From Planktothrix pseudagardhii (GTDB taxonomy: Bacteria > Cyanobacteriota > Cyanobacteriia > Cyanobacteriales > Microcoleaceae), in contig NZ_LR882967.1 of assembly GCF_904830925.1 (NCBI RefSeq), positions 3,298,106 through 3,362,105 of the forward strand: a stretch of 64,000 nt of DNA, given 5' to 3'. Below the pieces are notes generated by a model. That model was not told the origin of the DNA and made no database searches. It worked only from the letters and a program-made list of their open reading frames with translations. Shown here piece after piece: positions 2 to 25,624 of this stretch (its first letter is position 1; each line of letters starts with the position of its first letter). The position numbers and the translations under genes are program-made.

Positions 2-449
2 GTCACCAGTTTAAGCAATGCAAGTGACGGAACTTGGCAGTTTTCTAACGATAATGGCAACAATTGGACAACATTTGGGGCAGTAACAGACAGTTCAGCG
101 ACTCTTTTAAGTAATACAGCCTTAGTTCGATTTGTTCCAAATGCCAACTTTAACGGTAATGTCAGCCTCACTTATCGAGGATGGGATGGCACCAGTGGCA
201 GCAATGGACAAACGGGTGTGAATGTCAGCACCAATGGAGGAATAACAGCTTTTAGTACCGCCACAGCTACCTCTAATTTAAGTATTACTAATATTAACGA
301 CGCTCCTACAGGAACAGTTAGTATTACAGGAACAGCAACACAAAACCAAATTTTAACCGCCACCAATACCTTAGCGGATGCAGATGGTTTAGGAACATTA
401 AATTATCAATGGCAAGAGTCAGGCGATAATGGAGTCAACTGGACAGATA
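2..449 (+). pseudogene. Upstream in-window portion of the giant VCBS/RTX adhesin gene. It enters from before the window and is split from its continuation by an IS630-family insertion.
   Basis: The open frame runs from position 2 and encodes the same GTWQ..NGxxWT / NDAPTGTVSITGTATQNQILTATNTLADADGLGTLNYQWQ repeat sequence as the 1638-11363 ORF. The frame is broken exactly at a TA dinucleotide, where the IS begins. Joining 449 to 1639 restores ...NWTD|ISGATNN..., which matches the internal repeat consensus. Confidence 0.7.
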
Positions 450-1636
450 AGCTGTTGTGTATTTAAACTGTGATTATAGCATTACCTTTGTTTTTAAGTT
501 TACGTCCCCATTTAATAGATAACTGTCCTTCATTTAAAAGCTGATGTAATAAACACTCTAGCTCATCAACTGATTTAAAGAGTCGATGAGCTATATATTC
601 TTTAGCTGAATGCCAGACTAATTCAATTAAATTATAATCTGGACTATATGCTGGAAGAAATTCTAAATAGACATTCGGCATTTCTGCTTTAATTTTTTCT
701 AGGTACTCTTCTTTTTTGTGAAAACTTGCATTGTCAAGAATAATCAGGATCTTAGCTCCTTTTTCTACAAATTCTTCTGCTTGATTTCCCGCTAATACCC
801 ATTCATAAATTAGCTCTTGATAAAAACTTTTTAACACTTGATAAAAATTATCTGCATTTCCTTTATCCAGAAATTCTACAAATCTTTTTTTATCCGAGTA
901 CCTCAATCCTCCCATCACATTAACTCTTCCTTTCCTCCTGTCTCCTCTAATCTGTTTCCTCTTCCCTTTTTTACACCAATTCTTTCTTTTTATCACTCTT
1001 AAATTAAATCCACTTTCATCCCAAAACCATACCTGTAATTGTTCTGGACTTTCTTTTGCTATTTTCAAATATTCTTCTATTTTATCTTTAAATAATTTTC
1101 TTTTTTCTGGATCTCTTTTCTCTTCTAAGCTATACTTTGCCCACAAATAAACATACTTTTTTTCCTTTAATATCTTTCTCACTTGTGAACTACTTAATTT
1201 GATTCCTGTGATTTGTTCTAAATAAGTTGCCAATCTTTCTCCTGTCCATCTCCCAAATTCATATCCTAATTCTTCCGGTTCTTTTTCTACTGTTTCTAAT
1301 AATATCTCTATATATTTGTCTGTGGCTTTTCTATAATTTCCTTTCATTCTTTCATCTTTTAGGCTTTCTAATTTGTCAGGGTCTCCATGTACACACCAAT
1401 AACATACTTTGTTTAATGAGCAGCCCAAAAACTTGGCAATTTCACTTTGCTTTTTACCATCATTTAGCAATAATAAAATCAAGATTCTTTCTCGGATTTG
1501 TCCATTTTCTTCCTCTTTCAATCTTTTCTGTAGTTTCTCTACTTGCTTTTCATTTAAATGATTTTTAGCAGGCATCTTTTGATTGATTTTTCTAAACTTG
1601 GTTTTTCATTATACCCTATTTAGATGCTTAACAGCT
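450..1636 (-). mobile_element. IS630-family (Tc1/mariner-like) insertion sequence, about 1.19 kb, flanked by a TA target-site duplication.
   Basis: A single transposase ORF fills the element. Its ends are imperfect inverted repeats (AGCTGTTGTGTAT... and ...AGCATCTAAGCAGCT-like, sharing the AGCTGTT terminus). A TA lies directly on each side, at 448-449 and 1637-1638. Removing the element and one TA restores the adhesin reading frame. Confidence 0.85.
463..1575 (-). CDS. IS630-family DDE transposase (370 aa).
   Basis: The N-terminus has a helix-turn-helix region (KQSEIAKFLGCSLNKVCYW). The C-terminal DDE-type domain carries IS630/Tc1 hallmarks (WFWDESGFNL ... ILDNASFHK ... YSPDYNLIELVW). Size and organisation are typical of the family. 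Confidence 0.85.
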   Translation of the reverse strand: MPAKNHLNEKQVEKLQKRLKEEENGQIRERILILLLLNDGKKQSEIAKFLGCSLNKVCYWCVHGDPDKLESLKDERMKGNYRKATDKYIEILLETVEKEPEELGYEFGRWTGERLATYLEQITGIKLSSSQVRKILKEKKYVYLWAKYSLEEKRDPEKRKLFKDKIEEYLKIAKESPEQLQVWFWDESGFNLRVIKRKNWCKKGKRKQIRGDRRKGRVNVMGGLRYSDKKRFVEFLDKGNADNFYQVLKSFYQELIYEWVLAGNQAEEFVEKGAKILIILDNASFHKKEEYLEKIKAEMPNVYLEFLPAYSPDYNLIELVWHSAKEYIAHRLFKSVDELECLLHQLLNEGQLSIKWGRKLKNKGNAIITV

Positions 1637-1637
1637 T

Positions 1638-4600
1638 ATTAGTGGAGCGACTAATAATACTTTGACCTTATCTCAAACACAAGTGGGGAAAACGGTACAA
1701 GTAAAAGTTAGTTATACTGACCTATTAGGAACAGCAGAAACAGTTAATAGTAGTCCAACTGCTGTAGTTACTAATATTAACGACGCTCCTACAGGAACAG
1801 TTAGTATTACAGGAACAGCAACACAAAACCAAATTTTAACCGCCACAAATACCTTAGCAGATGTTGATGGTTTAGGAACATTAAATTATCAATGGCAACA
1901 GTCAGCAGATAATGGAGTCACCTGGACTAATATTAGTGGAGCGACTAATAATACTTTCACCTTATCTCAAGCACAAGTTGGGAAAAAGGTACAAGTAAAA
2001 GTTAGTTATACTGACTTATTAGGAACAGCAGAAACAGTTAATAGTAGTCCAACTGCTGTAGTTACTAATGTTAACGACTTACCGACAGGTAATGTTAGTA
2101 TTACAGGAACAGCAACACAAAACCAAATTTTAACCGCCACCAATACTTTAGCGGATGTTGATGGTTTAGGAACGTTTAATTATCAATGGCAAGAGTCCTC
2201 AGATAATGGAGTCACCTGGACTAATATTAGTGGAGCGACTAATAATACTTTCACCTTATCTCAAGCACAAGTTGGGAAAAAGGTACAGGTAAAAGTTAGT
2301 TATACAGACCTATTAGGAACAGCAGAAACGGTTAATAGTAGTTCGACTTCTGTGATTTCTGGACTTTTGAATAATGCTCCTACAGGAACAGTTAATATTG
2401 CGGGTACAGCAAAACAAAATCAAACCTTAACGGCAACCAATACCTTAGCAGATGCAGATGGTTTAGGAACGTTTAATTATCAATGGCAAGAGTCCTCAGA
2501 TAATGGAGTCACCTGGACTAATATTAGTGGAGCGACTAATAATACGTTCACCTTATCTCAAGCACAAGTAGGGAAAACGGTACAAGTAAAAGTTAGTTAT
2601 ACAGACCTATTAGGAACAGCAGAAACGGTTAATAGTAGTCCAACTTCTGTGGTTACTAATATTAACGACGCTCCTACAGGAACAGTTAATATTACAGGAA
2701 CAGCGACACAAAACCAAATTTTAACGGCAACCAATACCTTAGCAGATGCAGATGGTTTAGGAACATTAAATTATCAATGGCAAGAGTCATCAGATAATGG
2801 AGTCACCTGGACTAATATTAGTGGAGCGACTAATAATACTTTTACCTTATCTCAAGCACAAGTTGGGAAAACGGTACAAGTAAAAGTTAGTTATACAGAC
2901 CTATTAGGAACAGCAGAAACAGTTAATAGTAGTTCGACTTCTGTGGTTTCTGGACTTTTGAATAATGCTCCTACAGGAACAGTTAATATTGCGGGTACAG
3001 CAACACAAAACCAAATTTTAACGGCAACCAATACCTTAGCAGATGTTGATGGTTTAGGAACGTTTAATTATCAATGGCAAGAGTCAGCCGATAATGGAGT
3101 CACCTGGACTAATATTAGTGGCGCGACTAATAATACTTTTGCCTTATCTCAAACACAAGTTGGGAAAAAGGTACAAGTAAAAGTTAGTTATACTGACCTA
3201 TTAGGGACAGCAGAAACAGTTAATAGTTCACCTACAACTACCGTTACTAATGTTAACGACTTACCCACAGGTAATGTTAGTATTACAGGAACAGCGACAC
3301 AAAACCAAATTTTAACGGCAACCAATACCTTAGCAGATGTTGATGGTTTAGGAACATTAAATTATCAATGGCAAGAGTCAGGCGATAATGGAGTCACCTG
3401 GACGAATATTAATGGAGCGACTAATAATACTTTCACCTTATCTCAAACACAAGTAGGGAAAAAGGTACAGGTCAAAGTTAGTTATACTGACCTATTAGGA
3501 ACAGCAGAAACAGTTAATAGTAGTCCGACTTCTGTGGTTACTAATATTAACGACGCTCCTACAGGAACAGTTAATATTACAGGAACAGCAACACAAAACC
3601 AAATTTTAACCGCAACCAATACCTTAGCAGATGCAGATGGTTTAGGAACATTAAATTATCAATGGCAAGAGTCAGCCGATAATGGAGTTACCTGGACAGA
3701 TATTAGTGGAGCAACTAATAATACTTTTGCCTTATCTCAAGCACAAGTTGGGAAAAAAGTACAGGTCAAAGTTAGTTATACCGATGGACAAGGGACAGTA
3801 GAAACTGTTAATAGTAGTCCGACTTCTGTGGTTACTAATATTAACGACGCTCCTACAGGAACAGTTAATATTACAGGAACAGCAACACAAAACCAAATTT
3901 TAACCGCAACCAATACCTTAGCAGATGCAGATGGTTTAGGAACATTAAATTATCAATGGCAAGAGTCAGCCGATAATGGAGTTACCTGGACAGATATTAG
4001 TGGAGCAACTAATAATACTTTTGCCTTATCTCAAGCACAAGTGGGGAAAAAGGTACAGGTCAAAGTTAGTTATACAGACCTATTAGGAACAGCAGAAACG
4101 GTTAATAGTTCACCTACAACTACCGTTACTAATGTTAACGACTTACCCACAGGTAATGTTAGTATTACAGGAACAGCAACCCAAAACCAAATTTTAACCG
4201 CCACTAATACCTTAGCGGATGCAGATGGTTTAGGAACATTAAATTATCAATGGCAAGAGTCAGCCGATAATGGAGTCACCTGGACTAATATTAGTGGAGC
4301 GACTAATAATACGTTTACCTTATCTCAAACACAAGTGGGGAAAAAGGTACAGGTCAAAGTTAGTTATACTGACCTATTAGGGACAGCAGAAACGGTTAAT
4401 AGTAGTCCGACTTCTGTGGTTACTAATATTAACGACGCTCCTACAGGAACAGTTAATATTACAGGAACAGCGACACAAAACCAAATTTTAACGGCAACCA
4501 ATACCTTAGCAGATGCAGATGGTTTAGGTACTTTTAATTATCAATGGCAACAGTCATCTGATAATGGAGTCACCTGGACTAATATTAGTGGAGCGACTAA

Positions 4601-5300
4601 TAATACTTTGACCTTATCTCAAACCCAAGTGGGGAAAAAGGTACAGGTCAAAGTTAGTTATACTGACCTATTAGGGACAGCAGAAACGGTTAATAGTAGT
4701 CCGACTTCTGTGGTTACTAATATTAACGACGCTCCTACAGGAACAGTTAATATTACAGGAACAGCGACCCAAAATCAAACCTTAACCGCCACAAATACCT
4801 TAGCAGATGCAGATGGTTTAGGTACTTTTAATTATCAATGGCAACAGTCAGCCGATAATGGAGTCACCTGGACTAATATTAGTGGAGCGACTAATAATAC
4901 GTTCACCTTATCTCAAACACAAGTTGGGAAAAAGGTACAAGTAAAAGTTAGTTATACAGACCTATTAGGAACAGCAGAAACGGTTAATAGTTCACCTACA
5001 ACTACCGTTACTAATGTTAACGACTTACCCACAGGTAATGTTAGTATTACAGGGACAGCAAAACAAAATCAAACCTTAACGGCAACAAATACCTTAGCAG
5101 ATGTTGATGGTTTAGGAACATTAAATTATCAATGGCAACAGTCAGCCGATAATGGAGTCACCTGGACTAATATTAGTGGAGCGACTAATAATACGTTCAC
5201 CTTATCTCAAACACAAGTGGGGAAAAAGGTACAGGTCAAAGTTAGTTATACAGACCTATTAGGAACACAAGAAACGGTTAATAGTACACCCACAGCTACC
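1638..5300 (+). repeat. Array of about 12 near-identical 297-bp (99-aa) tandem repeats (VCBS-like adhesion repeat). Two more copies lie upstream of the IS.
   Basis: The motif GTTACTAATATTAACGACGCTCCTACAGG recurs every 297 bp (for example 1780 and 2077). The protein consensus is NDAPTGTVNITGTATQNQILTATNTLADADGLGTLNYQWQESADNGVTWTNISGATNNTFTLSQAQVGKKVQVKVSYTDLLGTAETVNSSPTSVVTNI. Confidence 0.85.
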
Positions 5301-8300
5301 GTTACTAATGTCACTGCCGTTAACCATGCTCCCGTATTAGATAATACCAACTTCACCTATAGCCTCACCCCTATTAACGAAGATGACAGCAACTCCAGTG
5401 GGGATACTGTCGGGAATCTTATTCCTCCACCTTTAGGTATCAAAGAAAACACCAACGTCTCCCTCCCCGGTGTTTACAGAAGTTCCGTCACCACAGCCGA
5501 CTTTGACAAAGATGGGGACACCGACATCCTACTCACGGGCAAAGATGGTTTTAATAACCGCATCAGCAAAATCTATAGCAACAATGGCAGTGGCGGTTTT
5601 AGCGAAAACACCAACATCTCCCTCACCGGTGTTTACAGAAGTTCCGTTACCACAGCCGACTTTGACAAAGATGGGTACACCGACATCCTGCTCACGGGCT
5701 CCTCTAGTTCTGGCCCCATCAGCAAAATCTATAGCAACAACGGCAGTGGCGGTTTTAGCGAAAACACCAACATCTCCCTCACCGGTGTTATATGGAGTTC
5801 CGTCGCCACCGCTGACTTCGACAATGATGGGGACACCGACATCCTGCTCACGGGCCAGGATGGTTCTGATAACCCCATCAGCAAAATCTATAGCAACAAC
5901 GGCAGTGGCGGTTTTAGCCTCAACACCAACGTCTCCCTCACGGGTGTTCGCTATAGTTCCGTCACCACCGCCGACTTTGACAAAGATGGGGACACCGATA
6001 TCCTGCTCACGGGCCGGGATAGTTCTAAGAAACCCATCAGCCAAATCTATAGCAACAACGGCAGTGGCGGTTTTAGCGAAAACACTAAGGTCTCCCTCAT
6101 CGGTGTTGACAGAAGTTCCGTCACCACCGCCGACTTTGACTCTGATGGGGACACCGACATCCTACTCACGGGCTACGCTGGTTATAATAACCCCATCAGC
6201 CAAATCTATAGCAACAACGGCAGTGGCGGTTTTAGCGAAAACACCAACATCTCCCTCACCGGTGTTTACAGAAGTTCCGTCACCACAGCCGACTTTGACA
6301 AAGATGGGTACACCGACATCCTGCTCACGGGCTTGGATGGTTATGGCCCCATCAGCCAAATCTATAGCAACAACGGCAGTGGCGGTTTTAGCCTCAACAC
6401 CAACGTCTCCCTCACGGGTGTTCGCTATAGTTCCGTCACCACCGCCGACTTTGACAAAGATGGGGACACCGACATCCTGCTCACGGGCAAGGATAGTTCT
6501 AGTAACCCCATCAGCAAAATCTATAACCATCTTTTCCCGATATCCGATGTAGACACCACCACCATCACCGAAGCCATTGCTATCACTGCTGCCGACAATA
6601 ACGGCACCTGGCAATATTCCACCGACAACGGCACAACCTGGACAAACTTCCCCGTTGTCAGCAACAGTAACGCCCTATTATTAGATCCGAGTAACAAAGT
6701 CCGCTTCCAACCCAACGCTGACTACAACGGGACTATTACCACTGCCCTCACCTTCCGCGCCTGGGATCAGTCCACAGGTACAGCCGGAACTACAGCCGAC
6801 ACTCGCATTAACGGCGGTACAACAGCCTTTAGCACCAACACCGCCACCGCCTCCATTGTGGTAACAGCCTTTAACAATACTCCCACTGCCACGGACAAAA
6901 CCCTAACCGTTAACGAAGACAACAACTACACCTTTACGACGGCGGACTTCGGTTTCAGTGATGTAGACACCACAGATACCCTAGCATCAATAAAAATCAC
7001 CCAACTGCCCACAGTGGGGACATTACAACTGAATGGCACTGCTGTTGCAGCTAACCAAGTGATCTCTGCTGTTGATATTCCCAGCTTAGTCTTCACCCCA
7101 GTTGCTAATGCTAACGGTAGCAGTTATGCCAACTTCAAGTTCACCGTTAATGACGGCATTATTGATAGTGTGGCAGCTAATACAATTACTATTGATGTTA
7201 CTGCCGTTAATGATATCCCTGTATTAAATACAGCTATTACCGCCCAGACCGCCAATCCAGATAGCAATTTCAATCTGAATATTGTTAATAACTTTAGCGA
7301 TATTGATGCAGGGGATAGTTTAACCTATAGCGCCACCTTAGCGGATGGTACAACCTTACCCAGTTGGTTAACTTTCAACACCACAACCGGAACATTTACC
7401 GGAAAACCCACTAATGCAGATCTCGGTAATCTTACTATCAAAGTTACAGCTAAAGATAGTAGTAATACTACAGTTGAAAACAGTTTCCAACTGACGGTTA
7501 ATAATACCAATACTCCGCCCACAGCCGCCAACAAAACCCTAACCGTTAACGAAGACAACAACTACACCTTTACGACGGCGGACTTCGGTTTCAGTGATGT
7601 AGACACCACAGATACCCTAGCATCAATAAAAATCACCCAACTGCCCACAGTGGGGACATTACAACTGAATGGCACTGCTGTTACAGCTAACCAAGTGATC
7701 ACTGCTGCTGATATTCCCAGCTTAGTCTTCACCCCAGTTGCCAATGCTAACGGTAGCAGTTATGCCAACTTCAAGTTCACCGTTAATGACGGCATTATTG
7801 ATAGTGTGACAGCTAATACAATTACTATTAATGTTATTGCCGTTAATGACTTACCCACAGGGAATATTAGTATTACAGGAACAGCCGAACAAAACCAAAT
7901 TTTAACGGCAACAAATACCTTAGCGGATGCAGATGGTTTAGGAACGTTTAATTATCAATGGCAAGAGTCAGCAGATAATGGAGTCACCTGGACTAATATT
8001 AGTGGAGCAACTAATAATACGTTTACCTTATCTCAAACCCAAGTAGGGAAAAAGGTACAGGTAAAAGTTAGTTATACCGATGGACAAGGAACCAAAGAAA
8101 CCGTTAATAGTAACCCAACCAATGCAGTCCTTTTGGGGGATATTATCGTCACCAAAGACACAGATAACGGTAAGGGAGATACCGAAGGAACTCTGAGTTG
8201 GGCGATAGACAGAGCCAATAAGAGCCCTGGAGCCGATACCATCAAACTCAATACCGATGTGCGTCTGAATTTTGGCGACGATGTGATACGGATGTGGAGT

Positions 8301-11300
8301 TTGATTGATAGCGATATGACTGTTGATGGGCAAGGACATACCATCAATGGGGATAATAATAATGATGGTACTGCGGATCAAGATGACCGTCCGATTTTCT
8401 TTGTCAAATCAGGGAATGTGAAATTTAAGAACCTGACCCTGAAAAACGCAGTTGCTAAGGGAGGCGATGGCTATAACTCCGGTGGTGGTGCGGGGATGGG
8501 AGGGGCACTGTTTATTTATCAAGGGAATGTCACGGTTGATGGGGTGAAGTTTGAGGGGAATGAAGCTAGAGGTGGTAATGGTACAGGGGGCAACGAGCAG
8601 TTTGGTGGTGGAATTGGGTTGCAGAAGATAGCAGCTAACAACGGTAGCAATGGTGGCTACGGTAGGAAGGGCATCAACGGCAGGAACGGCGAATGGGGCG
8701 ACAACGGCGGCAACGGCGGCGAAGGCGGCTGGGGCGGCTGGGGCGGCAGTGGCGGCAAAGGCGGCGAAGGCGGCAGAGGCGGCATCGGCGGCGACGATGC
8801 CATCGTCGGCATCGGCGGCAGTGGCGGCAAAGGCGGCGAAGGCGGCAGTGGCGGCTTCGGCGGCAGAGGCGGCTTCGGCGGCAAAGGTGGCAGAGGCGGC
8901 ATCGGCGGCAGAGAGGGCATCAGCGGCGTTGAAGGCACCGGCGGCCTTGGCGGCAGAGGCGGCTTCGGCAGCGGCGGCGGCAATGGCGGCAGTGGCGGCA
9001 TCGGCAGCGACGGCAGTGGCGGCTTGAGCAACTACGGCGGCAGAGGCGGCTTCGGCGGCGGCAGTGGCGGCATCGGTGGCAGCGACCTCATCTTTGGCGG
9101 TGCAGGGATGGGAGGAGCGATTTTTGTCCGGGAAGGCAACCTCACCATCACAGGCTCCAGTTTCTCAAATTCCAGAGCCGTTGGAGGATCAGGAACTGAC
9201 GATCGTGTCACCTCCGATGATGGACAAGGGTTTGGAGGAGCTATATTTGCCATCACCCAAGCAACGATAGATGCTCAGAAGGCGATTAATGACCAAGGTT
9301 TACCCACCTCACCCCCAACCGTCACCATTAGCAGTGACACCACCTTCTCAGGGAACTATGCCTTCAATGCAGCCACCAAAACTCAAGACTTTCAAGGAAC
9401 TAACCTTAACACTTATGCTGTGTTCAGTGGCGATATTAAAGTTGCCACCCCCGCAGCTATCTCCCAAACCATCAAAGCCAAAGCTTTAGATGGCCCCATC
9501 TCTGGAGCCACAGCCTTCCTAGACACCAACTTCAACCGCACCCAAGATAGCGATGAACCTGGTGCAACCACAGATGCTGCGGGTAATTTCACCCTGGAGA
9601 TTGCGGGTAACTTCGACCTCAACAGCAATGGCACTCTCGACTTCGATGAAGGGGAATATGTGGTCGTCGGTGGCACCGATGCCATTACCGGACAAGCCTT
9701 TACAGGCACACTGCGGGCAGTTCCCGGTTCTACGGTAGTTACCCCTCTAACGACTTTAATTTCTACCCTCGTCGATACAGGACTCACCCCAGAAGCATCC
9801 GAAACCCAAGTCAAAACTGCTTTGGGACTCCCCAGCACCATTAATTTAGCCACCTTTGATGCCATCGCAGCCGCCCAAGCGGGTTCTCCTGAAGGTTTAG
9901 CGGTGTTAGCGGCACAAGTGGCAGTGCAAACCCTGATTAGTCAAATCAGTAACTCCCTGCAAACGGTTATCGGTGTTAGCAGTAATAGCTTAGATGCTCA
10001 GGTGACTGGGAATCTAGCCCAACTCCTGCAAAGTGGCAGTTTCAATCTCAGTGATAGCACAGCGATTCAAACTTTGATTACTAACACAGTTGGTAATATA
10101 AACAGTTTATTAGCAGAGGTAGACCCAGCAGACAACACTATTAACCTAGAGGCGATTACCAACAATGCGGCTCAATTATCCCAAGTGATTGCCGCCAGTA
10201 ACCAGCAAATCCTGACCTCCACCACCACTGATGGCATCTTCCAAGCCCAAAAAGTCGCCCAAACCAGCGTCACAGAAGATTTAAGTGCCGCCTTCAGTGG
10301 TACAAAATCCTTTGACGAAGTCGTAGCTGAGAATACTGGAGAAGCCCTAACCACTCAAATTGCTACCACCACCATCGATACTTCTGTTATTGACCAACCC
10401 CCAACAGATCCCAACAACCCAGACACAGGAGGAACCATCATTGATAACGGTAACATTGACCCGAATCAAGAGGTTATTAATAGTAGCACCGTTGGGTTAA
10501 TAAATTCCGTTAATCCCACAACTCCAACTCCCTCAACTCCCACCCCAAAAACAACAAATCCCTCATCCCTGAGCGACCCCATCGAACAATTTATCGCTCG
10601 GAAAAATCTAACCTCCATTCCCACCAGTAACCCCCCCGATGACCTGCTCTTAGGAGATGAGCGTCCCAACTCCCTCAGTGGTGGTATCGGTCAAGATACC
10701 CTACTCGGTTATGGTGAAGTTGATTTCCTCTCAGGAAACCTAGGTCAAGATGTGATTTATGGTTTCCTTGGAAACGACCTAATTTATGGTGGAGCCGATG
10801 AAGACTGGGTGGGAGGCGGTAAAGACAATGACCTGATTTTCGGAGGTTTAGGAAACGATACCCTCAGTGGCGATTTAGGCAATGATACCGTATTAGGAGA
10901 AGTTGGAAACGACCTGTTAGTTGGTCATACTGGAGAAGATCTGTTGTCAGGAGGTACAGGGAACGATAACCTTTACGGTGGCGACGATAACGATCTGATT
11001 CATGGCGGTCAAGGCGACGATTTTGTAGATGGAAGTAACGGCGATGATTTAGTCACAGGAGATTTAGGCAATGATACCCTTAATGGTGGAGTCGGAACAG
11101 ATTCCCTCATTGGCGGTCAAGGAGCCGATATCTTTATGTTAAATCCGGGTGAAAATGGTGATTTTATCCTAGATTTTGTTGGAGGTAAGGATCTGTTAAA
11201 ATTGACGCAAAATTATAATTTTAATCAGCTTACCATCCTTCAAGGGAGTGGAACTCAAGCCGGAAATACCTTGATTCAAGTCGCAGCCAATAATGAACTT

Positions 11301-11363
11301 TTAGCCACTTTAATCGGTGTTCCTGCTAACTCAATTACCGCTAATTCTTTTACCCTTAATTAA
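1638..11363 (+). CDS. Giant secreted repeat adhesin, continuation after the IS (about 3240 aa in the window). Domains in order: VCBS-like tandem repeats, FG-GAP propeller, cadherin-like and dystroglycan-type Ig-like domains, parallel beta-helix region, Gly-rich region, C-terminal RTX calcium-binding repeats.
   Basis: One continuous ORF. The ORF track starts it at an internal TTG at 1662, but the frame is open from 1638. The domain order is read directly from the translation. The C-terminal GGxGxDxLx nonapeptides (about 18) and the non-repeat tail are typical of T1SS substrates. Confidence 0.8.
   Translation: [3241 protein letters not shown]
5440..6535 (+). repeat. Seven FG-GAP repeats of about 53 aa each, predicted to form a 7-bladed integrin-alpha-like beta-propeller.
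   Basis: There are seven copies of ...[27 protein letters not shown]...[18 protein letters not shown]..., each with the Ca-binding-like DxDxDG signature (DFDKDGDTD). Confidence 0.8.
6886..7843 (+). repeat. Two nearly identical copies (about 320 bp each; 6886-7210 and 7519-7843) of a cadherin-like domain. A dystroglycan-type putative Ig domain lies between them.
   Basis: The sequence ACCCTAACCGTTAACGAAGACAACAACTACACCTTTACGACGGCGGACTTCGG...CAACTGAATGGCACTGCTGTT is identical at about 6899 and about 7532. The protein reads [49 protein letters not shown]...FKFTVNDG. The interdomain [30 protein letters not shown] is a He_PIG/CADG-type motif. Confidence 0.7.
8690..9075 (+). repeat. GGC-rich, low-complexity region of about 390 bp encoding GG-x-GG-x glycine repeats. 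Local GC far exceeds the 40% background.
   Basis: The DNA is GGCGGCNNNGGCGGC 15-nt units encoding [29 protein letters not shown].... Antisense frames translate as PPLPP artefacts. Confidence 0.8.
10640..11150 (+). repeat. RTX (hemolysin-type) calcium-binding nonapeptide repeats.
   Basis: The translation reads [73 protein letters not shown]..., with GGxGxDxLx periodicity. Confidence 0.8.
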
Positions 11364-11374
11364 CGAAGAAATCC

Positions 11375-11425
11375 CGAAACCCGGTTTCTTCAAGAAATCG
11401 GGTTTCTTTAACAATTCCTAACAAC
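11375..11425 (+). terminator. Candidate rho-independent terminator after the adhesin gene.
   Basis: The GAAACCCG...CGGGTTTC inverted repeat is followed by a T-rich run (TTTCTTTAAC). It starts 12 nt after the stop codon. Confidence 0.4.
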
Positions 11426-13320: not shown

Positions 13321-13626
13321 GGAGTTCTCAACCGTTTAGCCAGCACATCAATCGCTTCTGTTGTGATCAGATTTTCTAGTTGCCAAACTCGCCCGACTTT
13401 TATCCACTGACAAAGATTTGGAAACCAAAATCTTGCCACCTTTCCTCAAGGTCTCTTGTAGCCGTCGCAGCGTTAAAGTTTTGCCACAACCCACCACTCC
13501 AGACAGAGCAATCAGTTTTCCTGAAGCAATCGCTGCCTTAATTTCTTTGAACAACTGCCGCAGTTGCTCAGTTTCGTAATAACCAGCCCGTCGAAAATCC
13601 TTGACCAAGCCATAAAATTCCATCAC
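13239..13626 (-). pseudogene. Remnant of an ExeA/AAA_22-type ATPase gene (transposon-associated ATPase) with an internal deletion or frameshift.
   Basis: ORF 13348-13626 encodes the N-terminus MMEFYGL...FRRAGYYETEQL...LIALSGVVGCGKT (Walker A). ORF 13239-13439 encodes a C-terminal-like ...TTEAIDVLAKRLRTPLQI. The central ATPase core is missing. Confidence 0.5.
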
Positions 13627-13864
13627 TGAGCGTCAACATTCCCTGTCCTCTCGTCCGGTTTTAAAGTAAGCTGCTACGCAGCTTATTCTTGCCTGACTTG
13701 TTAATAAAAATGGAAACATCAGAAACATAATAGAAACATTGAAAAATTTTATTGACACTCCCAGGAAGCAGATGCCAAAATGATTCGCATCCATTAGACA
13801 TCTCCAAAATAGAAAAAAGGAGGGGTAAAAAGATGATAAAATTAAATTTTACCCCGGATTAGAG

Positions 13865-14785
13865 ATGAGTAAATTAAGAGACTATCTGGACAAGAATCCC
13901 CAGCAAGCAAAAAGGCTATTAGGGATGGAATATGAACAGATGATAGAACTCATTCAAGCTGCGGAGTTATTAGAAGAAGAAAAACGACAGGAAAAAGAAA
14001 AAACTAAAATCAGGTTGATTAAAGCAGGTGGGGGTCGTCGGCAGAAATTATCTGTGGAGGAACAAATCTTACTGACTCTAATTTATCTGCATCAAATGCC
14101 GACATTTCAAATGTTAGGGTTACAGTTTGAAGTCAGTGAATCAACAGCGAATGATATTTTCCATAACTGGATAAAAATCTTGAGAGAATTACTACCAGCG
14201 AGTTTGCTAGAGCAAGTAAAAAAAAACGAGAGTGATTGGGAGTGGGTAGAAAAAATTCTGGTGGAATTTGAGTTAGTAGTAGATAGCTATGAACAGCCCA
14301 GGGAAAGACCAACAGACAATGAAGAGCAGAAAAAATATTACTCAGGAAAGAAAAAGACACATACCTTTAAAAATCAAGTCATTGTCATGCCAAATGGAAA
14401 AGAAATAGTGGATGTAGCTGTGGGTTATACCGGAGCAACAAGTGATCTGAAATTGTGGAGAGAAAGAAGCCAGGAATTGGGGAATAATCAAAAATACAGA
14501 GGGGATAAAGCTTATGTAGGAGAAACAGCAATTAATACACCGTATAAGAAACCGAGGAATCAAGAGATGTCGGCGGAAAAGCGAGAAGAAAATCGGTTAA
14601 AAGCCCAACAAAGGATTGTAGTTGAACATTTAATAAGACTGATAAAAATTTATCGAGTTGCTTCAGAAAGATTTCGGTTAAAGAGGCAAAATTATGAAGC
14701 AGTAATCTTGACAGTATGTGGATTAATAAGATGGCGAATAGGAGCGATTGTATTACCATCTAAGAATTGCCCAGAATTCTTTTGA
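13865..14785 (+). CDS. IS5-family (DDE_Tnp_4 / Harbinger-like) transposase.
   Basis: The central motifs YSGKKKTHTFKNQVIV...VAVGYTGATSD...YRGDKAYVGE...NTPYKKPRNQEMSAEKREENRLKAQQRIVVEHLIRLIKIYR fit DDE_Tnp_4. A short GGGGTAAAA...TTTTACCCC inverted repeat sits just upstream (13826-13858). Confidence 0.75.
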   Translation: MSKLRDYLDKNPQQAKRLLGMEYEQMIELIQAAELLEEEKRQEKEKTKIRLIKAGGGRRQKLSVEEQILLTLIYLHQMPTFQMLGLQFEVSESTANDIFHNWIKILRELLPASLLEQVKKNESDWEWVEKILVEFELVVDSYEQPRERPTDNEEQKKYYSGKKKTHTFKNQVIVMPNGKEIVDVAVGYTGATSDLKLWRERSQELGNNQKYRGDKAYVGETAINTPYKKPRNQEMSAEKREENRLKAQQRIVVEHLIRLIKIYRVASERFRLKRQNYEAVILTVCGLIRWRIGAIVLPSKNCPEFF

Positions 14786-14830
14786 GAAATAATTGTATAT
14801 CAGAGATAAAATTCATTAGTTATTATTAAT

Positions 14831-15295
14831 GTGACTGAAAAAGCCTATGAATCCGTTACTTTTGGAGAAGCCGGCACAGGAGTGCTAGAGATTCCAAAAG
14901 TAGCGATAGAGGGCATTTGGAGATTTTCGGAGATGTCTAGTGGTGAAAGTGATCAAGTTGCATTAGCGGAAATCGGGGACTGGTTGAAGCGATGGCTAGA
15001 GGCTGTGAATATTTCTCTAACCGATAAAACCCAGTTCGAGGAAGCAACGCGCCATTTACAGTTCGCCATCTTGGTGACAGTGTTAGCGAATCGGTTAAGC
15101 TTTGTGCTTGACCACCTCAGTGCTTTAATGCGATCGCAGGTGATCGACTTTCACGACACTAGCTTATCCCTGGTCAATCGCCCACCACGAGACTATTTAG
15201 CCATTGTCCCTTCGTCACCAGTGGGCAATATCCTCGGCTTTCGATATACCAGCGATCGCCGCCTGCTGGGCAGTTATAATGATGGAAGGAGTTAG
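14831..15295 (+). CDS. Hypothetical protein, possibly a fragment.
   Basis: This is an ORF only. I recognise no motif. It lies in the IS/fragment-rich region. Confidence 0.25.
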   Translation: MTEKAYESVTFGEAGTGVLEIPKVAIEGIWRFSEMSSGESDQVALAEIGDWLKRWLEAVNISLTDKTQFEEATRHLQFAILVTVLANRLSFVLDHLSALMRSQVIDFHDTSLSLVNRPPRDYLAIVPSSPVGNILGFRYTSDRRLLGSYNDGRS

Positions 15296-15880: not shown

Positions 15881-16999
15881 TCAGGGCTGTTTCATTTTCC
15901 CAAATTGGGGAGTCAAATTGAGTCCCCAATTTTTAGGAATGAGGCGAAAAAGTTGTCCTTCTGTTATTGATACAAAACCCCAACTTCTGAAAAGATTGAT
16001 TACCAGAGTTTTAAGAGTTGAAAAGTTGCTAGCTGCTTGAAAGTTACGAATTCGGCTTTTATCTTCTTGAAAAATTACATCTTTTACCCAATGGTATTGA
16101 TTCTCAATCCCCCAATGTCCTTTAATGATTTGAGCTAAGGTTTGAGCTTCGTTAACGGCACTACTGATATAATATACTTTTTCTTGATAGGGTTTTTTTC
16201 CTCTGTTGCCACTTCTTTCTATCTGAATCACAAGTTTCAGATGTTTCCAGCCTTTGTGAAAGTTGTTATTGACTTGATAAATGGAAACTTTTCGAGTCAC
16301 TTTTCTGCCATGGCTGTGTTCATGAGTCACATCTACACTCACAGGATTTTCACTTTTTATTACCGCTTCAACTTGCTCATATAACTTTTTTTGATTTTTC
16401 TTTAAAGCCATTATATAATCATTCCCGCTCTCAATAACTAGGGCAGCAGTTTTCTGATTACAGTGCAACGCATCAAAGGTTATTACTTTTCTTTTTAACT
16501 GGCAATCCCTTACTATCTTTTGGGCTTGGCTGATTTCTGATTCTTTTTTGTTCTCCATCTTTCTCAGGTTTAATACGCATCCTGTTCTTTGACTAAACAG
16601 TGCAACAATCATCACAAAATTTTGGGATTTATCTCCAAAATCTTTGAGAGTGCTTCTCAGGCTTTTTCCATCTACTGCTAACCAATCTAGTTCTTCTTGA
16701 TGCGGATAATTACAAGTAGCCCATTCATTAAATATCTCAATTAAATTTAACCAATCTACTCCTTGTATTACTCTTCTTATTGTTGAGTATGATGGCAGTT
16801 TTTCTAGCTTGATTTTTAAAACTTGACTCAGTTGGTATTGATTGATTTTCGCAAAATTTTCGAGTTCTCTGTACCCTAAATTTCTCGACATTAGCCCCAA
16901 AATGACTATTAATAATACTAGCCATATTGGATGCCTTGTTCCCTGGGCTTTCCGGTAATCCTTGACTTTTTTCAGTTTTTCTATTAGAGTTGTTAGCAT
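15881..16999 (-). CDS. ISAs1-family transposase (H-repeat-associated, DDE_Tnp_1 with N-terminal DDE_Tnp_1_assoc domain).
   Basis: The N-terminus KDYRKAQGTRHPIWLVLLIVILGLMSRNLGYRELENFAKIN is the ISAs1-associated domain. The DDE core includes ...LAVDGKSLRS...ITFDALHCNQK...HWGIENQYHWVKDVIFQEDKSR. Confidence 0.8.
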   Translation of the reverse strand: MLTTLIEKLKKVKDYRKAQGTRHPIWLVLLIVILGLMSRNLGYRELENFAKINQYQLSQVLKIKLEKLPSYSTIRRVIQGVDWLNLIEIFNEWATCNYPHQEELDWLAVDGKSLRSTLKDFGDKSQNFVMIVALFSQRTGCVLNLRKMENKKESEISQAQKIVRDCQLKRKVITFDALHCNQKTAALVIESGNDYIMALKKNQKKLYEQVEAVIKSENPVSVDVTHEHSHGRKVTRKVSIYQVNNNFHKGWKHLKLVIQIERSGNRGKKPYQEKVYYISSAVNEAQTLAQIIKGHWGIENQYHWVKDVIFQEDKSRIRNFQAASNFSTLKTLVINLFRSWGFVSITEGQLFRLIPKNWGLNLTPQFGKMKQP

Positions 17000-17253
17000 C
17001 TTTATTTTTACAAAAAAATCAGCGACCGCTTTTGATTTTATCAGCTAGCAATCGCTATTTCTTTACTCTTTTCCCCCCGACTTTGAAACAGCCCTGGTTC
17101 AAGTCGGGGGTGATGCCTGTTATGAAAATTATGGAGGGTGTGAGCATTTCCTCTCTAGCAGAGCTAATGCTAGAGCAATGGGCATTGGCTCTGCTCCAGT
17201 CAGCATCCCCATCCACTGAACTCGATGACAGTATGGAGGAAATCGCTCTATGA
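16990..17253 (+). pseudogene. Probable 3' remnant of an upstream biosynthetic gene cut off by the ISAs1 insertion. Its stop overlaps the NRPS start codon (ATGA).
   Basis: The ORF ends ...SISSLAELMLEQWALALLQSASPSTELDDSMEEIAL. Its TGA overlaps the ATG of the NRPS at 17250-17253. Its 5' part runs into the ISAs1 element, so only the last 65 or so codons can be native. Confidence 0.3.
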
Positions 17254-20200
17254 ACCTTAAGCAATTTGTAGCTGAACTCGCCCTAGCTGGTGTGAAGTTG
17301 TGGGTCGAAGACGACCAGTTGCGCGTGCGGGCACCAAAGAAGGTACTGACACCAGAGGTACGTAATTTATTGGCATTGCATAAGGCAGAACTTGTAAAGT
17401 TGCTACAGAACAGCAATGCGATCGCCAATGATACTGACCTACCCCTTCTAAGAGTTTCGCGAACTGGTAACTTGCCTCTGTCTTTTGCCCAAGAAGGACT
17501 GTGGTTCTTGAGCCAGTTGGAGCCAACTAACCCCTTCTACAACGTACCACTAGCTCTGCGACTTAATGGTTCTCTCAACGTTGTCGCTTTAGAGAAAAGC
17601 CTCAACAAGATAATTCAACGCCACGAGGTCTTACGCACCAACTTCACAACGGTTGAGGGGCAACCCGTTCAGGTTATTGCTCTTGGCTTGACCTTGAGTG
17701 TGCAAGTCATAGATTTGAGTGAGCTACCTGAGAGTGAAAGAGAAATTGCTTGGGGGCTAAAAGCCAGGGCACAAATCCAGCAACCCTTTGACCTCAGTAG
17801 CTCTGGGTTGATTCAAGCTTCTGTGCTAAAGCTAACACCGACAGAACATATCTTGTTACTAACAATACATCACATTGTCTGGGATGCTCCTTCAGAGGGC
17901 GTATTGGTCAAGGAGTTAGCAGCTTTCTACACAGCCTACTGCAATGACTTGCTACCAGAGCTACCAGAGCTACCGATTCAGTACGCCGACTTTGCTGTTT
18001 GGCAGCGGCAGTGGTTACAGGAAGACATACTAGAGTCTCAACTTGCTTATTGGAAGCAACAACTGTCTGGTGCGCCAGAAATATTGGAACTGCCAACTGA
18101 CCGAGTGCGAAAAGCAACTCAAACGTTTCGAGGGGCGTGTCACCGACAAGCACTCTCAAAAGAACTAACAGAGGCTTTGATGATTTTAAGTCAACGCAAA
18201 GGAGTTACTCTGTTTATGACGCTGTTGGCGGCGCTCTTCACATTGCTTTACCGTTATACAGAGCAGACCGATATTTGCGTAGGCACGCCTTACGCAGGCC
18301 GGGAGCGCCGTGAGCTTCAGGGATTGATTGGATTGTTTCTCAATACGTTGGTTCTGCGGACTGATATATCAGGTAATCCGAGTTTTGAGGAGCTACTCTC
18401 AAGAGTCCGGGACGTGGCTTTGGGAGCATACGCTCATCATGACCTACCGTTTGAAAAGTTATTAGAACAATTGCAGCCAGCGCGTAACTTAAGCTACACA
18501 CCGTATTTCCAAGTGAGGTTTGTGCTTTACCCAGCGATGCAGATAGACATGGAAGGCTTAACGGTGAGTCCAGTAGCGGTAGAAACAGCTACGGCGAAGT
18601 TGGATTTGTTTGTAGCTTTCGTCAACAGCGACTCTGGACTAATCGGGACGTGGGAATACAATACTGACTTGTTTGATGCCAGTACGATCAATCGCATGGC
18701 TCAACATTTTCAGACCTTACTAGAGGGAATTGTTGCTAATCCTCAACAGAAGGTTTCAGAATTGCCATTGCTCACAGAGCCAGAGCGACACCAGCTATTA
18801 GTAGAGTGGAACAACGCCACAAAAGAGTATCCCTTCAATAAGTGTATCCACCAGTTATTTGAGGAACAGGTGGAGCGATCGCCTGATGCTATTGCGGTGG
18901 TTTTTGAAGGGGAGCAACTGACCTACCAAGATTTGAACCAACGGGCGAACAGAATAGCACATCACTTGAAAACTCTAGGTGTGGAGCCAGAAGTGCTGGT
19001 GGGCATCTACGTTGATCGCTCCTTAGAGATGGTAGTGAGTCTACTTGGCATCCTCAAAACTGGAGGGGCTTATGTGCCTTTAGACCCATCCTATCCCAAA
19101 GAGCGCTTAGCGTTCATGTTGCAAAATTCACAACCAAAGGTGTTGTTGACTCAGGAGTGCTTGATAACAGAACTGCCTGAACATACGGCACAAGTTGTTT
19201 GCTTAGATACAGATAGGCATCTCATTGCTCAACACTCAGAAGAAAATTTAAACCAAACAGCAACAGTTGCTAATTTAGCCTATGTCATTTATACCTCTGG
19301 CTCAACGGGAAAGCCAAAGGGAGTACAGGTGACACACGCTAATTTGTGTCACTATGCCCAAGCAATGAGTCAAGTGCTAAATATCACAGCAGAAGATGTA
19401 TATTTGCACACCGCATCGATTGCTTTCTCATCTTCTGTCAGACAGTTGATCGTGCCTCTGGCTAGTGGGGCAACTGTCAAAATTGCAACTTCTGAACAGA
19501 GAAAAGACCCACAATCACTATTTACGACAATTAAACAACATAGTGTGACAGTTATTGATATTGTCCCCTCTTATTGGCGTAACTGCATTCATACACTTGC
19601 TAGCTTAGAACCTGTTACGAAACAAGCACTGTTAGATAACAAACTGCGTTTAATTGTGTCGGCGAGCGAACCGCTGCTGTCCGATCTTCCTACTCAGTGG
19701 ACGTTTGGTTTTCAGCACAAAGCACGATTAATCAATATGTTTGGTCAAACTGAAACTTGTGGAATTGTTGCCACTTATCCAATTCCGGCACAACAGGATG
19801 AGCCAATCAAAATTGTCCCTATCGGTCGCCCGATCACCAACACACAAATTTATCTGCTCGACTGCCATCTGCAACCAGTCCCTGTTGGTGTACCTGGGGA
19901 AGTGCATATTGGTGGTTTTGGACTGGCGCGAGGCTACCTCAACAGCCCAGAATTGACAAAAGAAAAATTCATCCCCAACCCCTTTAGCCAAGAAGAAGGA
20001 ACACGCCTCTACAAAACCGGGGACAATGCCCGCTACCTTCCAGACGGTAACATTGAGTTCCTTGGTCGGCTGGATCGTCAAGTGAAGATTCGCGGTTTCC
20101 GTATTGAACTCGGAGAAATCGAAGCAGCGCTAGCTCAACACCCAGAGGTACGGGAGACAGTAGTTTTAGCAAGGGATGACCAACCAGATAACAAACGACT

Positions 20201-21503
20201 GGTAGCTTATGTTGTTCCCAACCATGAACCTCCTGCCACCATTGAACTGCGGCACTTCCTCCAACAAAAGCTCCCAGACTACATGGTGCCGGGAGCCTTT
20301 GTGATGCTTTCTTCTTTACCTCTCACCCCCAATGGTAAGGTAGACCGTCGCGCCTTGGAGACACCAGATACGGAATTAAGTAACTCAATGGGCTTTGTCC
20401 CTCCCCGTGACACAGTTGAACAGCAACTACAGCAAATTTGGTCAGAGGTTTTGAAGCTTCCGACTGTTGGAATGAAGGATAACTTCTTTACTTTCGGAGG
20501 TCATTCTCTTTTAGCTGTACTCTTAATGGCTCAAATTTCGCGGCATTTTGGGAAAAATCTGCCCATAGCAACGCTTTTCTCTAGCCCAACTATCGAACAG
20601 CTAGCTAGTTGTCTTCGATCCGAAACTCATTCCTTGCCTTGGTCTCCTTTGGTAGCAATTCAGTCTGGCACCGAGAAGCGACCTTTCTTCTTTGTGCCTG
20701 GAGTTGGGGGAAATGTGATTTACTTATATGAGCTAGCGCGTCATCTTGGATCTGAGCAACCCTTCTACGGTCTGCAAGCACGGGGACTGGATGGCGAATC
20801 AGAGCCTTTTACACAGTTGGAAGAGATAGCCACCTACTATATTGAAGCAATACAGACAGTTCAGCCCTCTGGTCCGTACCTGCTGGGAGGGCATTCGTTT
20901 GGAGGTGTAGTTGCCTTTGAGATGGCAACTCAGTTGCTCAAACAGGGGCATGAGGTCGCTCTACTTGCAATTATTGACGTTGTTGCGCCAATTGTTGCTA
21001 ATAAGCCGAATTATTCTGATGAAGATGAGGTGGCATATCTTTTTGATTTTGCCAGCTATATTGAATATATGTTCTCCCTCAAGTTGGAGGTATCTAAAGA
21101 AACTCTTGCTTCCCTATCTCAGGAGGAGCAATTGAACTATCTCAAAGAACGGTTGATACGGGTCAATTTGCTACCCCCTGATGCGGGAATAGGGTTAGTA
21201 CGGGGGCTAGTGCAAGTATACATTGCGTCCCTGAAAGCTCATCGTGCTTATTTGCCTTCGGGGCTGCAACAAGCTCCCATTACTCTTTTCCGTTCTAGTG
21301 AGGTTGATGTATTTGAGGGTGATACAGAAGAGTTGAAACAAAGGCGAAAAGAACCTGCTTTGGGCTGGAACGAGTTTTCTTCTACTATAGACATTCATGT
21401 TGTTCCAGGGAACCATAGCACCATGATGCAACAGCCGCACGTACAGGTGTTAGCCACACAACTTCTCTCTTGCCTAAAGCAAACACAGGCTCCATTGGCT
21501 TAG
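17250..21503 (+). CDS. Single-module nonribosomal peptide synthetase: N-terminal TubC-type docking domain, then C, A, T (PCP) and TE domains.
   Basis: Docking domain: MNLKQFVAELALAGVKLWVEDDQLRVRAPKKVLTPEVRNLLALHKAELVKLL. C domain: HHIVWDA motif near 17868. A domain: A3 LAYVIYTSGSTGKPKGV near 19290, A5 NMFGQTE, A7 YKTGDNARY, A8 GRLDRQVKIRGFRIELGEIE, A10 PNGKVDRRAL. T domain: FFTFGGHSLLAV, Ser near 20503. TE: GGHSFGG near 20889, with a C-terminal GNHSTMM His. Confidence 0.85.
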   Translation: MNLKQFVAELALAGVKLWVEDDQLRVRAPKKVLTPEVRNLLALHKAELVKLLQNSNAIANDTDLPLLRVSRTGNLPLSFAQEGLWFLSQLEPTNPFYNVPLALRLNGSLNVVALEKSLNKIIQRHEVLRTNFTTVEGQPVQVIALGLTLSVQVIDLSELPESEREIAWGLKARAQIQQPFDLSSSGLIQASVLKLTPTEHILLLTIHHIVWDAPSEGVLVKELAAFYTAYCNDLLPELPELPIQYADFAVWQRQWLQEDILESQLAYWKQQLSGAPEILELPTDRVRKATQTFRGACHRQALSKELTEALMILSQRKGVTLFMTLLAALFTLLYRYTEQTDICVGTPYAGRERRELQGLIGLFLNTLVLRTDISGNPSFEELLSRVRDVALGAYAHHDLPFEKLLEQLQPARNLSYTPYFQVRFVLYPAMQIDMEGLTVSPVAVETATAKLDLFVAFVNSDSGLIGTWEYNTDLFDASTINRMAQHFQTLLEGIVANPQQKVSELPLLTEPERHQLLVEWNNATKEYPFNKCIHQLFEEQVERSPDAIAVVFEGEQLTYQDLNQRANRIAHHLKTLGVEPEVLVGIYVDRSLEMVVSLLGILKTGGAYVPLDPSYPKERLAFMLQNSQPKVLLTQECLITELPEHTAQVVCLDTDRHLIAQHSEENLNQTATVANLAYVIYTSGSTGKPKGVQVTHANLCHYAQAMSQVLNITAEDVYLHTASIAFSSSVRQLIVPLASGATVKIATSEQRKDPQSLFTTIKQHSVTVIDIVPSYWRNCIHTLASLEPVTKQALLDNKLRLIVSASEPLLSDLPTQWTFGFQHKARLINMFGQTETCGIVATYPIPAQQDEPIKIVPIGRPITNTQIYLLDCHLQPVPVGVPGEVHIGGFGLARGYLNSPELTKEKFIPNPFSQEEGTRLYKTGDNARYLPDGNIEFLGRLDRQVKIRGFRIELGEIEAALAQHPEVRETVVLARDDQPDNKRLVAYVVPNHEPPATIELRHFLQQKLPDYMVPGAFVMLSSLPLTPNGKVDRRALETPDTELSNSMGFVPPRDTVEQQLQQIWSEVLKLPTVGMKDNFFTFGGHSLLAVLLMAQISRHFGKNLPIATLFSSPTIEQLASCLRSETHSLPWSPLVAIQSGTEKRPFFFVPGVGGNVIYLYELARHLGSEQPFYGLQARGLDGESEPFTQLEEIATYYIEAIQTVQPSGPYLLGGHSFGGVVAFEMATQLLKQGHEVALLAIIDVVAPIVANKPNYSDEDEVAYLFDFASYIEYMFSLKLEVSKETLASLSQEEQLNYLKERLIRVNLLPPDAGIGLVRGLVQVYIASLKAHRAYLPSGLQQAPITLFRSSEVDVFEGDTEELKQRRKEPALGWNEFSSTIDIHVVPGNHSTMMQQPHVQVLATQLLSCLKQTQAPLA

Positions 21504-21577
21504 TAATTGGTCTGTTAAGTGGAAATTTTTGAGGTAATTAACAAGCTCTTTCATTTGACTAAAAAAGCTCAATCATT

Positions 21578-22549
21578 ATGAAAATAGGAATTTTCGACTC
21601 GAATCACAATCTACCCTTGCTAGTAGAACCTGACACAAAACGCGAATCGTCTAATTTTGATTATCTCCTTTCATGGTACAAAGATAATAGTGAACTTTTA
21701 TCAAACAAAATTTTGAAACACGGAGCGATTCTTTTTCGAGGTTTTGATGTCAATACAATCTTAGCTTTTGAAAAATTCGTTAAATCTATTTCAGGTAATT
21801 TAATAGATTATGTTGATGGAAATTCTCCCCGAACCCAACTAGCTAGTGGTATTTATACTTCAACTGAATATCCAGCTGAATACTCCATTAGTTTGCATAA
21901 TGAGTTATCCTACTCTAGCCAATGGCCAGACCAACTCTATTTTTGCTGTATTACTGCGCCTAAAGAGGGCGGAGAAACACCAATTGCTGATAGTCGCCAA
22001 ATCCTCAAAAGTCTTAACCCAAAGATTGTGGAAAAGTTCACACTTAAACAAGTGAAGTATATCCGCAATTTACCTAGTAGTAATGGCATGGGAGTTTCAT
22101 GGCAAGATGCTTTTAAAACTTCAGATAAGTCCCTAGTAGAAGAGCATAATAGAAAAGCTGGTATGGATTTTGAGTGGAAGAAGGATGGAGGATTGCGATT
22201 AAGCCAGATTCGTCCTGCTATTGCAACTCATCCTCGTACAGATGAACAAGTTTGGTTTAATCAAGCCGATCTATTTCATCCATCTACTCTTCCTAAAAAT
22301 ATCTACGAAGCTATGATGTTTTATTTTGACGGTAACGAAGAGGAACTCCCTCACTATGCTTGCTTTGGCGACAATACTCCAATTGATGTTTCAATGCTAG
22401 ATGAAATTAGAGAAACTATTGGTAAACAAACTGTTGTTTTTCCTTGGCGGGAGGGTGATGTTCTAGTCATAGATAATATGTTAGTTTGTCATGGACGAAG
22501 ACCGTTTTTTGGTTCGAGAAAAATTTTGATTTCTATGTCACAATTCTGA
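21578..22549 (+). CDS. Fe(II)/2-oxoglutarate-dependent oxygenase of the TauD/clavaminate-synthase-like family. Probably an amino-acid beta-hydroxylase (VioC/AsnO/SyrP-like).
   Basis: The HxE facial triad start (SLHNELSY) and the C-terminal DNMLVCHGRRPF (second His plus 2OG-binding Arg) are typical of the CAS-like branch of PF02668. The gene sits between NRPS genes. Confidence 0.7.
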   Translation: MKIGIFDSNHNLPLLVEPDTKRESSNFDYLLSWYKDNSELLSNKILKHGAILFRGFDVNTILAFEKFVKSISGNLIDYVDGNSPRTQLASGIYTSTEYPAEYSISLHNELSYSSQWPDQLYFCCITAPKEGGETPIADSRQILKSLNPKIVEKFTLKQVKYIRNLPSSNGMGVSWQDAFKTSDKSLVEEHNRKAGMDFEWKKDGGLRLSQIRPAIATHPRTDEQVWFNQADLFHPSTLPKNIYEAMMFYFDGNEEELPHYACFGDNTPIDVSMLDEIRETIGKQTVVFPWREGDVLVIDNMLVCHGRRPFFGSRKILISMSQF

Positions 22550-22574
22550 TTATCTTAGCTATAAGTGTAAGTAG

Positions 22575-24356: not shown

Positions 24357-24366
24357 GCTTTGAAAA

Positions 24367-25512: not shown

Positions 25513-25624
25513 AGGGTGATTTTTTGTTTACGCGAGAGCATTTGCGAGATTACGAGACAACGCTGCGGCGCGCTACGAAGAATTGGTACGAATTCATCTC
25601 GCTGTATTATCGTTTGAACATTCT

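Follow-up and report, generated by a model that had tools for sequence, protein, structure and literature searches.

An IS630-family insertion sequence interrupts a giant RTX gene in Planktothrix pseudagardhii

In a 64,000-nucleotide stretch of the Planktothrix pseudagardhii contig NZ_LR882967.1, here called the window, we found a giant gene with RTX repeats that is interrupted by an insertion sequence (IS) of the IS630 family, an element that is already known. The IS occupies window positions 450-1636, is flanked on both sides by a duplicated TA and lies inside the first of 13 tandem repeat units. Removal of the element together with one TA restores a single open reading frame (ORF), and a close relative carries the same site without the insertion. 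In our view this is an ordinary insertional knockout, that is, a strain-specific loss-of-function allele of recent origin created by IS630-family transposition, and we put the probability of this explanation at about 90%. The insertion probably has no regulatory role.

The inserted element and its relatives

The junctions of the element read ...AACTGGACAGA-TA-[ AGCTGTTGTGTATTT ... AGATGCTTAACAGCT ]-TA-TTAGTGGAGCG..., the left one in longer form ...GGAGTCAACTGGACAGA-TA-AGCTGTTGTGTATTTAAAC and the right one TAGATGCTTAACAGCT-TA-TTAGTGGAGCGACT..., with GA-TA-TT as the context of the target dinucleotide. The longest inverted repeat of the region is an imperfect pair formed by the two ends of the insertion (447-467 and 1619-1639; 21 nt, 81%, TA included). 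The layout is compact, since a single transposase ORF takes up 1113 of the 1187 bp and there are no passenger genes; the GC content is 31% in the element versus 45% in the interrupted gene. A preliminary description made from the sequence had reported a TA-flanked element of 1187 bp with one DDE transposase, and length, single long ORF and target duplication were all borne out. Its span of 440-1645 gave the right location, although it took in a few flanking bases, which is trivial. The coordinates of all features of the interrupted locus are collected in Table 1.

Table 1. Features of the interrupted locus (window coordinates)
Feature	Position	Strand	Remarks
Upstream gene part	2..449	+	open from the window edge without stops; gene start outside the window
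Tandem array, 13 units of 294 nt (98 aa, Ig-like)	293..5303	+	IS at nucleotide 157 of unit 1
Left TA target-site duplication	448..449		junction reading; single TA at paralogous and orthologous empty sites
IS630-family insertion sequence	450..1636	-	transposase antisense to the interrupted gene; AGCTGTT...AACAGCT boundaries in independent copies
Transposase-distal terminal inverted repeat	450..467		447-467 / 1619-1639 pair
Transposase, 370 aa	463..1575	-	HTH_23/HTH_32/HTH_33, then DDE_3; candidate catalytic D186, D281, E318
Premature TAA of the upstream half	464..466	+	five codons into the IS; ORF 218-466 ends ...NWTDKLLCI, then stop
Transposase-proximal terminal inverted repeat	1619..1636		inverted-repeat pair and ends of other copies
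Right TA target-site duplication	1637..1638		junction reading
Downstream gene part	1639..11363	+	rest of the array, FG-GAP, cadherin-like/He_PIG, Gly-rich region, C-terminal RTX nonapeptide repeats

The assignment to the IS630 family, which had also been proposed before, is confirmed by the transposase. The protein matches the NCBIfam equivalog model NF033545 (transpos_IS630) with 268.9 bits against a cut-off of 100 bits (5.8e-80), residues 29-349 covering profile positions 1-297 of 299. Three helix-turn-helix domains, HTH_23 (26-60), HTH_32 (60-136) and HTH_33 (106-165), precede a Pfam DDE_3 domain (residues 181-339, 7.6e-36). D186, D281 and E318, the latter within the motif YSPDYNLIE, are kept in at least 99% of 111 homologues and represent the putative catalytic triad. 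A protein search returned more than 1000 cyanobacterial relatives, nearly all of them 370 aa long, with the nearest cluster coming from Planktothrix; the transposase of Planktothrix sp. FACHB-1365 differs in one residue only (99.7% protein identity). Synonymous codon differences outnumber non-synonymous ones by 24:1 with respect to the FACHB-1365 copy and by 32:6 with respect to the metagenome type. Since the differences between lineages are overwhelmingly synonymous, the transposase appears to have been kept functional under purifying selection.

The ends of the element could be fixed independently of the window, because identical boundaries recur among unrelated flanks. A further 22 copies were read; they correspond to 17 distinct occupied sites in FACHB-1365, Planktothrix sp. 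PCC 11201, a metagenome-assembled genome (MAG) and freshwater metagenomes. All 17 sites start with TA|AGCTGTT (one has an N in the flank), and each of the 14 that could be read to the far end contains exactly 1187 bp and ends with AACAGCT|TA, while the flanks are otherwise unrelated. Nucleotide identity of these copies to the window element is 95-97.7%, the upper value being reached by FACHB-1365 over the whole 1187 bp. The copies of FACHB-1365 and PCC 11201 thus have the same ends and TA flanks as the window element and differ only in the insertion site. The many copies at differing sites in related genomes, together with the synonymous bias, indirectly support the view that the element is mobile.

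Within the window neither blastn nor tblastn detected a second copy of the element, and a plasmid collection yielded no close copy but only IS630 elements of Nostoc with about 74% identity. Look-ups for exact matches to the transposase and to the NRPS protein encoded nearby returned no record. The flanks of the distinct sites gave no clear consensus for a target preference beyond TA. The right-hand TA is followed by TC in the window and in four of the five sites of one copy set, and in none of a second copy set. Copies of about 95% identity were also found in a MAG labelled Candidatus Obscuribacterales (L022 and L023; DATNRE010000337.1 and DATNRE010000103.1). These are either mis-binned Planktothrix contigs or the result of horizontal transfer of the element.

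A comparison of 13 Planktothrix genomes has previously described an IS630 group with a transposase gene of 1113 nt, which is present in 3-9 copies in two lineage-2 strains and in 57 copies in one lineage-3 strain (PMC9366434). The transposase gene of the window element has the same length as that of this 'IS element group 17' (Entfellner et al. 2022, PMC9366434), an assignment that follows family and gene length in the published table and not a sequence comparison. The element has much in common with the reference members of the IS630/Tc1/mariner group, IS630 of Shigella sonnei and ISY100 (ISTcSa) of Synechocystis sp. PCC 6803: one transposase only, with HTH motifs at its N-terminus and a DDE domain at its C-terminus, short terminal inverted repeats, a target TA that is duplicated on insertion and a size close to 1 kb (PMC2170065). 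It differs from both in belonging to another lineage with a 370-aa protein, and its cut-and-paste mode with cleavage 2 nt inside the 5' ends is assumed from ISY100.

The interrupted gene and its empty counterparts

The two parts of the giant gene fit together precisely. Once positions 450-1638 are deleted, a single frame of 3390 codons stays open between the window start and the stop codon at 11363. The junction then reads ...DNGVNWTDISGATNNTLTL..., which corroborates the earlier claim that the frame is restored once the element and one TA are taken out. The rebuilt unit 1 is a normal 98-aa unit, the first of 13, and is 94.9% identical to unit 2. Tandem Repeats Finder reported a period of 294 with 12.4 copies and 90% matches, starting exactly at 1637; the total amounts to 13 units because the 157 nt before the element add to the 12.4 downstream copies. 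The insertion thus lies inside a repeat unit, as had been described.

Towards the C-terminus the gene encodes four stretches of the calcium-binding RTX repeat PF00353 (HemolysinCabind, 7.4e-21), and further domains are Cadherin_3/4, He_PIG, Big_9 and FG-GAP repeats. This domain layout is that of giant surface proteins secreted by type I systems, and secretion by such a system is probable for the product of this gene as well. The name 'adhesin', which had been used for it, is reasonable in view of the RTX, cadherin-like, FG-GAP and Ig-like domains, and is to be read as a name taken from domain content only. In the 52 kb that follow the giant gene, none of the ORFs with 150 aa or more encodes a type I secretion component (ABC transporter, membrane fusion protein or TolC-like protein), where it should be considered that the upstream side lies outside the window and that adjacency is not required. 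A Gly-rich low-complexity stretch of GGxGG units (8697-9084; about 43 copies of a 9-nt unit according to Tandem Repeats Finder) separates a predicted beta-helix-like region from the C-terminal part of the protein.

Uninterrupted versions of the site are present both within the array and in relatives. The rebuilt 33-nt site recurs, with two mismatches at most, in ten other units. Two of these, at 3692 and 3986, are identical to it across the insertion point, which chance would not lead one to expect of any unit, and contain a single TA. An exact match to the sulfotransferase-like protein encoded next to the giant gene led to the orthologous site in Planktothrix tepida PCC 9214 (GCA_904830955), whose DNA shares 99.75% identity with the window along the neighbouring nonribosomal peptide synthetase (NRPS) gene. 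At this locus (L013), window positions 11-444 correspond to 2494-2927 with 94.5% identity, and the window from 1637 onward continues at 2931 onward. The site reads TGGACTAATATTAGTGG, uninterrupted and with a single TA, and a longer reading across it is GTCACCTGGACTAATATTAGTGGAGCA, again without interruption.

In PCC 9214 the orthologue is an intact gene of 2910 aa (L013:1192-9924) with an N-terminal DUF4347 domain. From the colinearity of the two loci we infer that the window gene extends about 1.3 kb beyond the left edge of the window and that its full product would have comprised about 3800 aa. In L026, L059 and L063, metagenomic relatives at a greater distance, DNGV(T/N)WTDI(S/G)G is encoded without a break. 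The two halves are therefore colinear in PCC 9214 as well as in more distant relatives, and not separate genes there. An older draft of PCC 9214 (L014) that is without most of the array was rejected as evidence of a deletion; given its 100% identity with L013 over the NRPS region, we treat it as a collapsed assembly.

PCC 9214 possesses two giant RTX genes in tandem, with products of 3132 aa (L013:1-918) and 2910 aa. Window 10446-11421 shares 98% identity with the 3' end of the former, and a paralogue may accordingly lie just left of the window. Identity to PCC 9214 is 90-96% within the gene versus 99.75-100% in the flanking DNA, a difference which could be explained by gene conversion between the tandem RTX genes.

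Origin, age and consequences of the insertion

The following course of events would account for the locus. A copy of the Planktothrix IS630-family element would have entered a TA in unit 1 of a gene of about 3800 codons by the cut-and-paste route usual for the family, and repair of the staggered joints would have duplicated the TA. The 1189 added bases shift the frame, and translation from the native start would end five codons into the element. The expected product is an N-terminal fragment that, judged by the orthologue, would comprise about 585 aa and lack the C-terminal RTX region. The type I secretion signals of RTX proteins are normally located in the C-terminal region.

The remaining 3' part of 9.7 kb is most likely silent, because its first 6.6 kb contain no ATG and a promoter could not be recognised. 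The first in-frame ATG past the IS is at 8292, and the '3233-aa ORF' beginning with TTG at 1662 is a mechanical call. Promoter-like sites that could serve the 3' half from the element outward occur at chance level (7 versus 7.9 in shuffled sequences) and none is located at the IS end. A promoter at the IS end driving the 3' half was therefore dropped as a candidate, such sites being no commoner than in the shuffles. Two small genes on the same strand, one sulfotransferase-like and one GNAT, follow 77 nt downstream of the giant gene and could be subject to a polarity effect.

The target duplication, the inverted repeats, the transposase and both gene halves are all intact. Across 10,170 nt of the gene there is no stop, and since 3.3% of the possible single-base changes would create one, about one stop is expected per 0.3% of neutral divergence. 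The insertion is probably young because its parts are intact, it is absent from a relative with 0.25% flanking difference and the gene has acquired no stops. The earlier description of the event as recent is consistent with the intact parts and the empty site in PCC 9214, in the sense that we infer the timing and do not date it.

Several points weigh against an ordinary knockout. The window comes from a single assembly, from which fixation of the insertion across the culture or across every chromosome copy cannot be judged. Further lesions, or none, may be present in the 5' end of the gene, which the window does not cover, and the open 3' part of 9.7 kb could mean that it continues to be used. 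Moreover, the orthology rests on position and colinearity, the gene itself being only 90-94% identical, and gene conversion with a tandem paralogue, as present in PCC 9214, is possible.

The knockout has consequences for annotation, as two seemingly unrelated ORFs and a transposase are in fact one disrupted gene of about 3800 codons, for which a pseudogene annotation that includes a mobile-element feature is appropriate. That the ORF caller had split the gene in this way was recognised in the preliminary description, rightly so. The strain is probably without the giant surface protein, which could bear on differences in attachment and lifestyle among tropical Planktothrix strains. We found no prior record of this IS copy in the giant RTX gene. 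The inactivation of mcy (microcystin synthetase) genes by ISPlag1 and other IS is known in Planktothrix (PMC9366434). These knockouts concern the same genus and the same kind of event, namely the strain-specific loss of a large non-essential gene through a resident IS, while they differ from the present case in the IS family (IS701) and in the target gene. The insertion thus joins the cases in which an IS has inactivated a gene in this IS-rich genus of cyanobacteria, an event type that is already known, and its interest would rise only with reversion or with recurrent hits in the giant gene.

It had also been proposed that the insertion is a potentially reversible switch resembling phase variation. 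The IS would then leave the gene at a useful frequency, by precise excision or, more plausibly, by homologous recombination between the upstream arm and the downstream repeats, and a mixed adhesive and non-adhesive population would result. The integrity of the target duplication, the inverted repeats, the transposase and both gene halves would be compatible with this. Reversible variation of surface structures through IS of other families has been reported for IS492 in epsG of Pseudoalteromonas atlantica, IS256 in icaC of staphylococci, and ISXo1 and ISXo2 in lipopolysaccharide genes of Xanthomonas oryzae (bioRxiv 10.1101/2023.04.27.538605; PMC2816298). In those systems, too, an IS resides in a surface or matrix gene whose function is lost. 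Reversion by precise excision was observed there experimentally.

We nevertheless consider such a switch very improbable, and the proposal found no support. No heterogeneity, reversion or recurrence is in evidence, and a pattern that fits either junction, occupied or empty, had 0 matches in metagenome contigs. The transposase of ISY100 cleaves precisely at the 3' ends of the element, whereas at the 5' ends it cleaves two bases further in (PMC2170065). If the present element is cleaved in the same way, rejoining would leave TA + 2 nt + TA, about four extra bases, and the gene would stay out of frame; precise excision would thus not be expected. A precise restoration of the site would read GATATTAG, the footprint alternative being TA + 2-3 nt + TA. 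Our literature search found no report of precise excision for bacterial IS630 members, the matches concerning piggyBac, Paramecium or IS5. Furthermore, one insertion in one genome is the outcome to be expected of random transposition in an IS-rich genus, and the window carries two more IS within 16 kb.

Recombination between repeats, which the preliminary description had left out of account, would be a more plausible means of reversal than precise excision. The upstream arm of 165 nt (285-449) has 13 downstream partners with 86-96% identity and exact runs of 20-79 nt. Each recombination between the arm and a partner would delete 1189 nt plus a multiple of three, so that the IS and whole units would be gone and the frame restored. 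The process is therefore geometrically possible and in frame. An off-switch that is reversible through RecA-type repeat recombination, or through segregation of occupied and empty chromosome copies in a polyploid filament, nonetheless seems to us quite improbable. If it existed, a population could alternate between attached and planktonic states.

Even less probable is an old, fixed lesion in a dispensable gene, or one that is kept for another purpose, with the 3' part expressed separately or serving as a donor for gene conversion. The tandem RTX genes of PCC 9214, whose 3' ends are 98% identical to that of the window gene, would fit such a history, as a paralogue could supply the function and homogenise the sequence, and so would the greater divergence of the gene compared with its flanks. 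However, the insertion is absent from a relative with 99.75% identity, 3390 codons are without stop or frameshift, the target duplication is perfect and the 3' part has no evident start codon or promoter. An assembly artefact, in which a repeated IS was misplaced within a repetitive gene, can practically be dismissed: repeats of 294 nt and a multi-copy IS are hard to assemble, as the older PCC 9214 draft illustrates, but a misjoin would produce neither a TA duplication at the exact ends nor flanks that rejoin as a perfect in-frame unit.

Neighbouring features of the window

Altogether, the window contains three IS elements within a span of 17 kb. The second one (13524-14943) contains a DDE_Tnp_4/HTH_Tnp_4 transposase gene (13865-14785, plus strand, 306 aa) and inverted repeats at 13791-13809 and 14925-14943. 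At the corresponding place the PCC 9214 loci carry 1583 nt of an ORF of 714 or 895 aa, and the arrangement looks like an IS-associated replacement or deletion. A third transposase of 372 aa (15881-16999, minus strand) is ISAs1-like, with DDE_Tnp_1 and DDE_Tnp_1_assoc domains. It predates the split of the strains, because it is present at the same place in PCC 9214.

Further downstream lies a small secondary-metabolite cluster (17250-29015), which is conserved in PCC 9214. It encodes an NRPS module of 1417 aa with a TubC_N docking domain and C-A-PCP-TE organisation. The cluster also includes a TauD-family dioxygenase, a carnitine-type acyltransferase, an acyl-CoA dehydrogenase, a stand-alone AMP-binding enzyme and a MatE exporter. 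On the minus strand, positions 50778-57469 hold a complete type I restriction-modification system consisting of HsdR (1049 aa), HsdS (338 aa) and HsdM (519 aa), followed by two FtsH paralogues.

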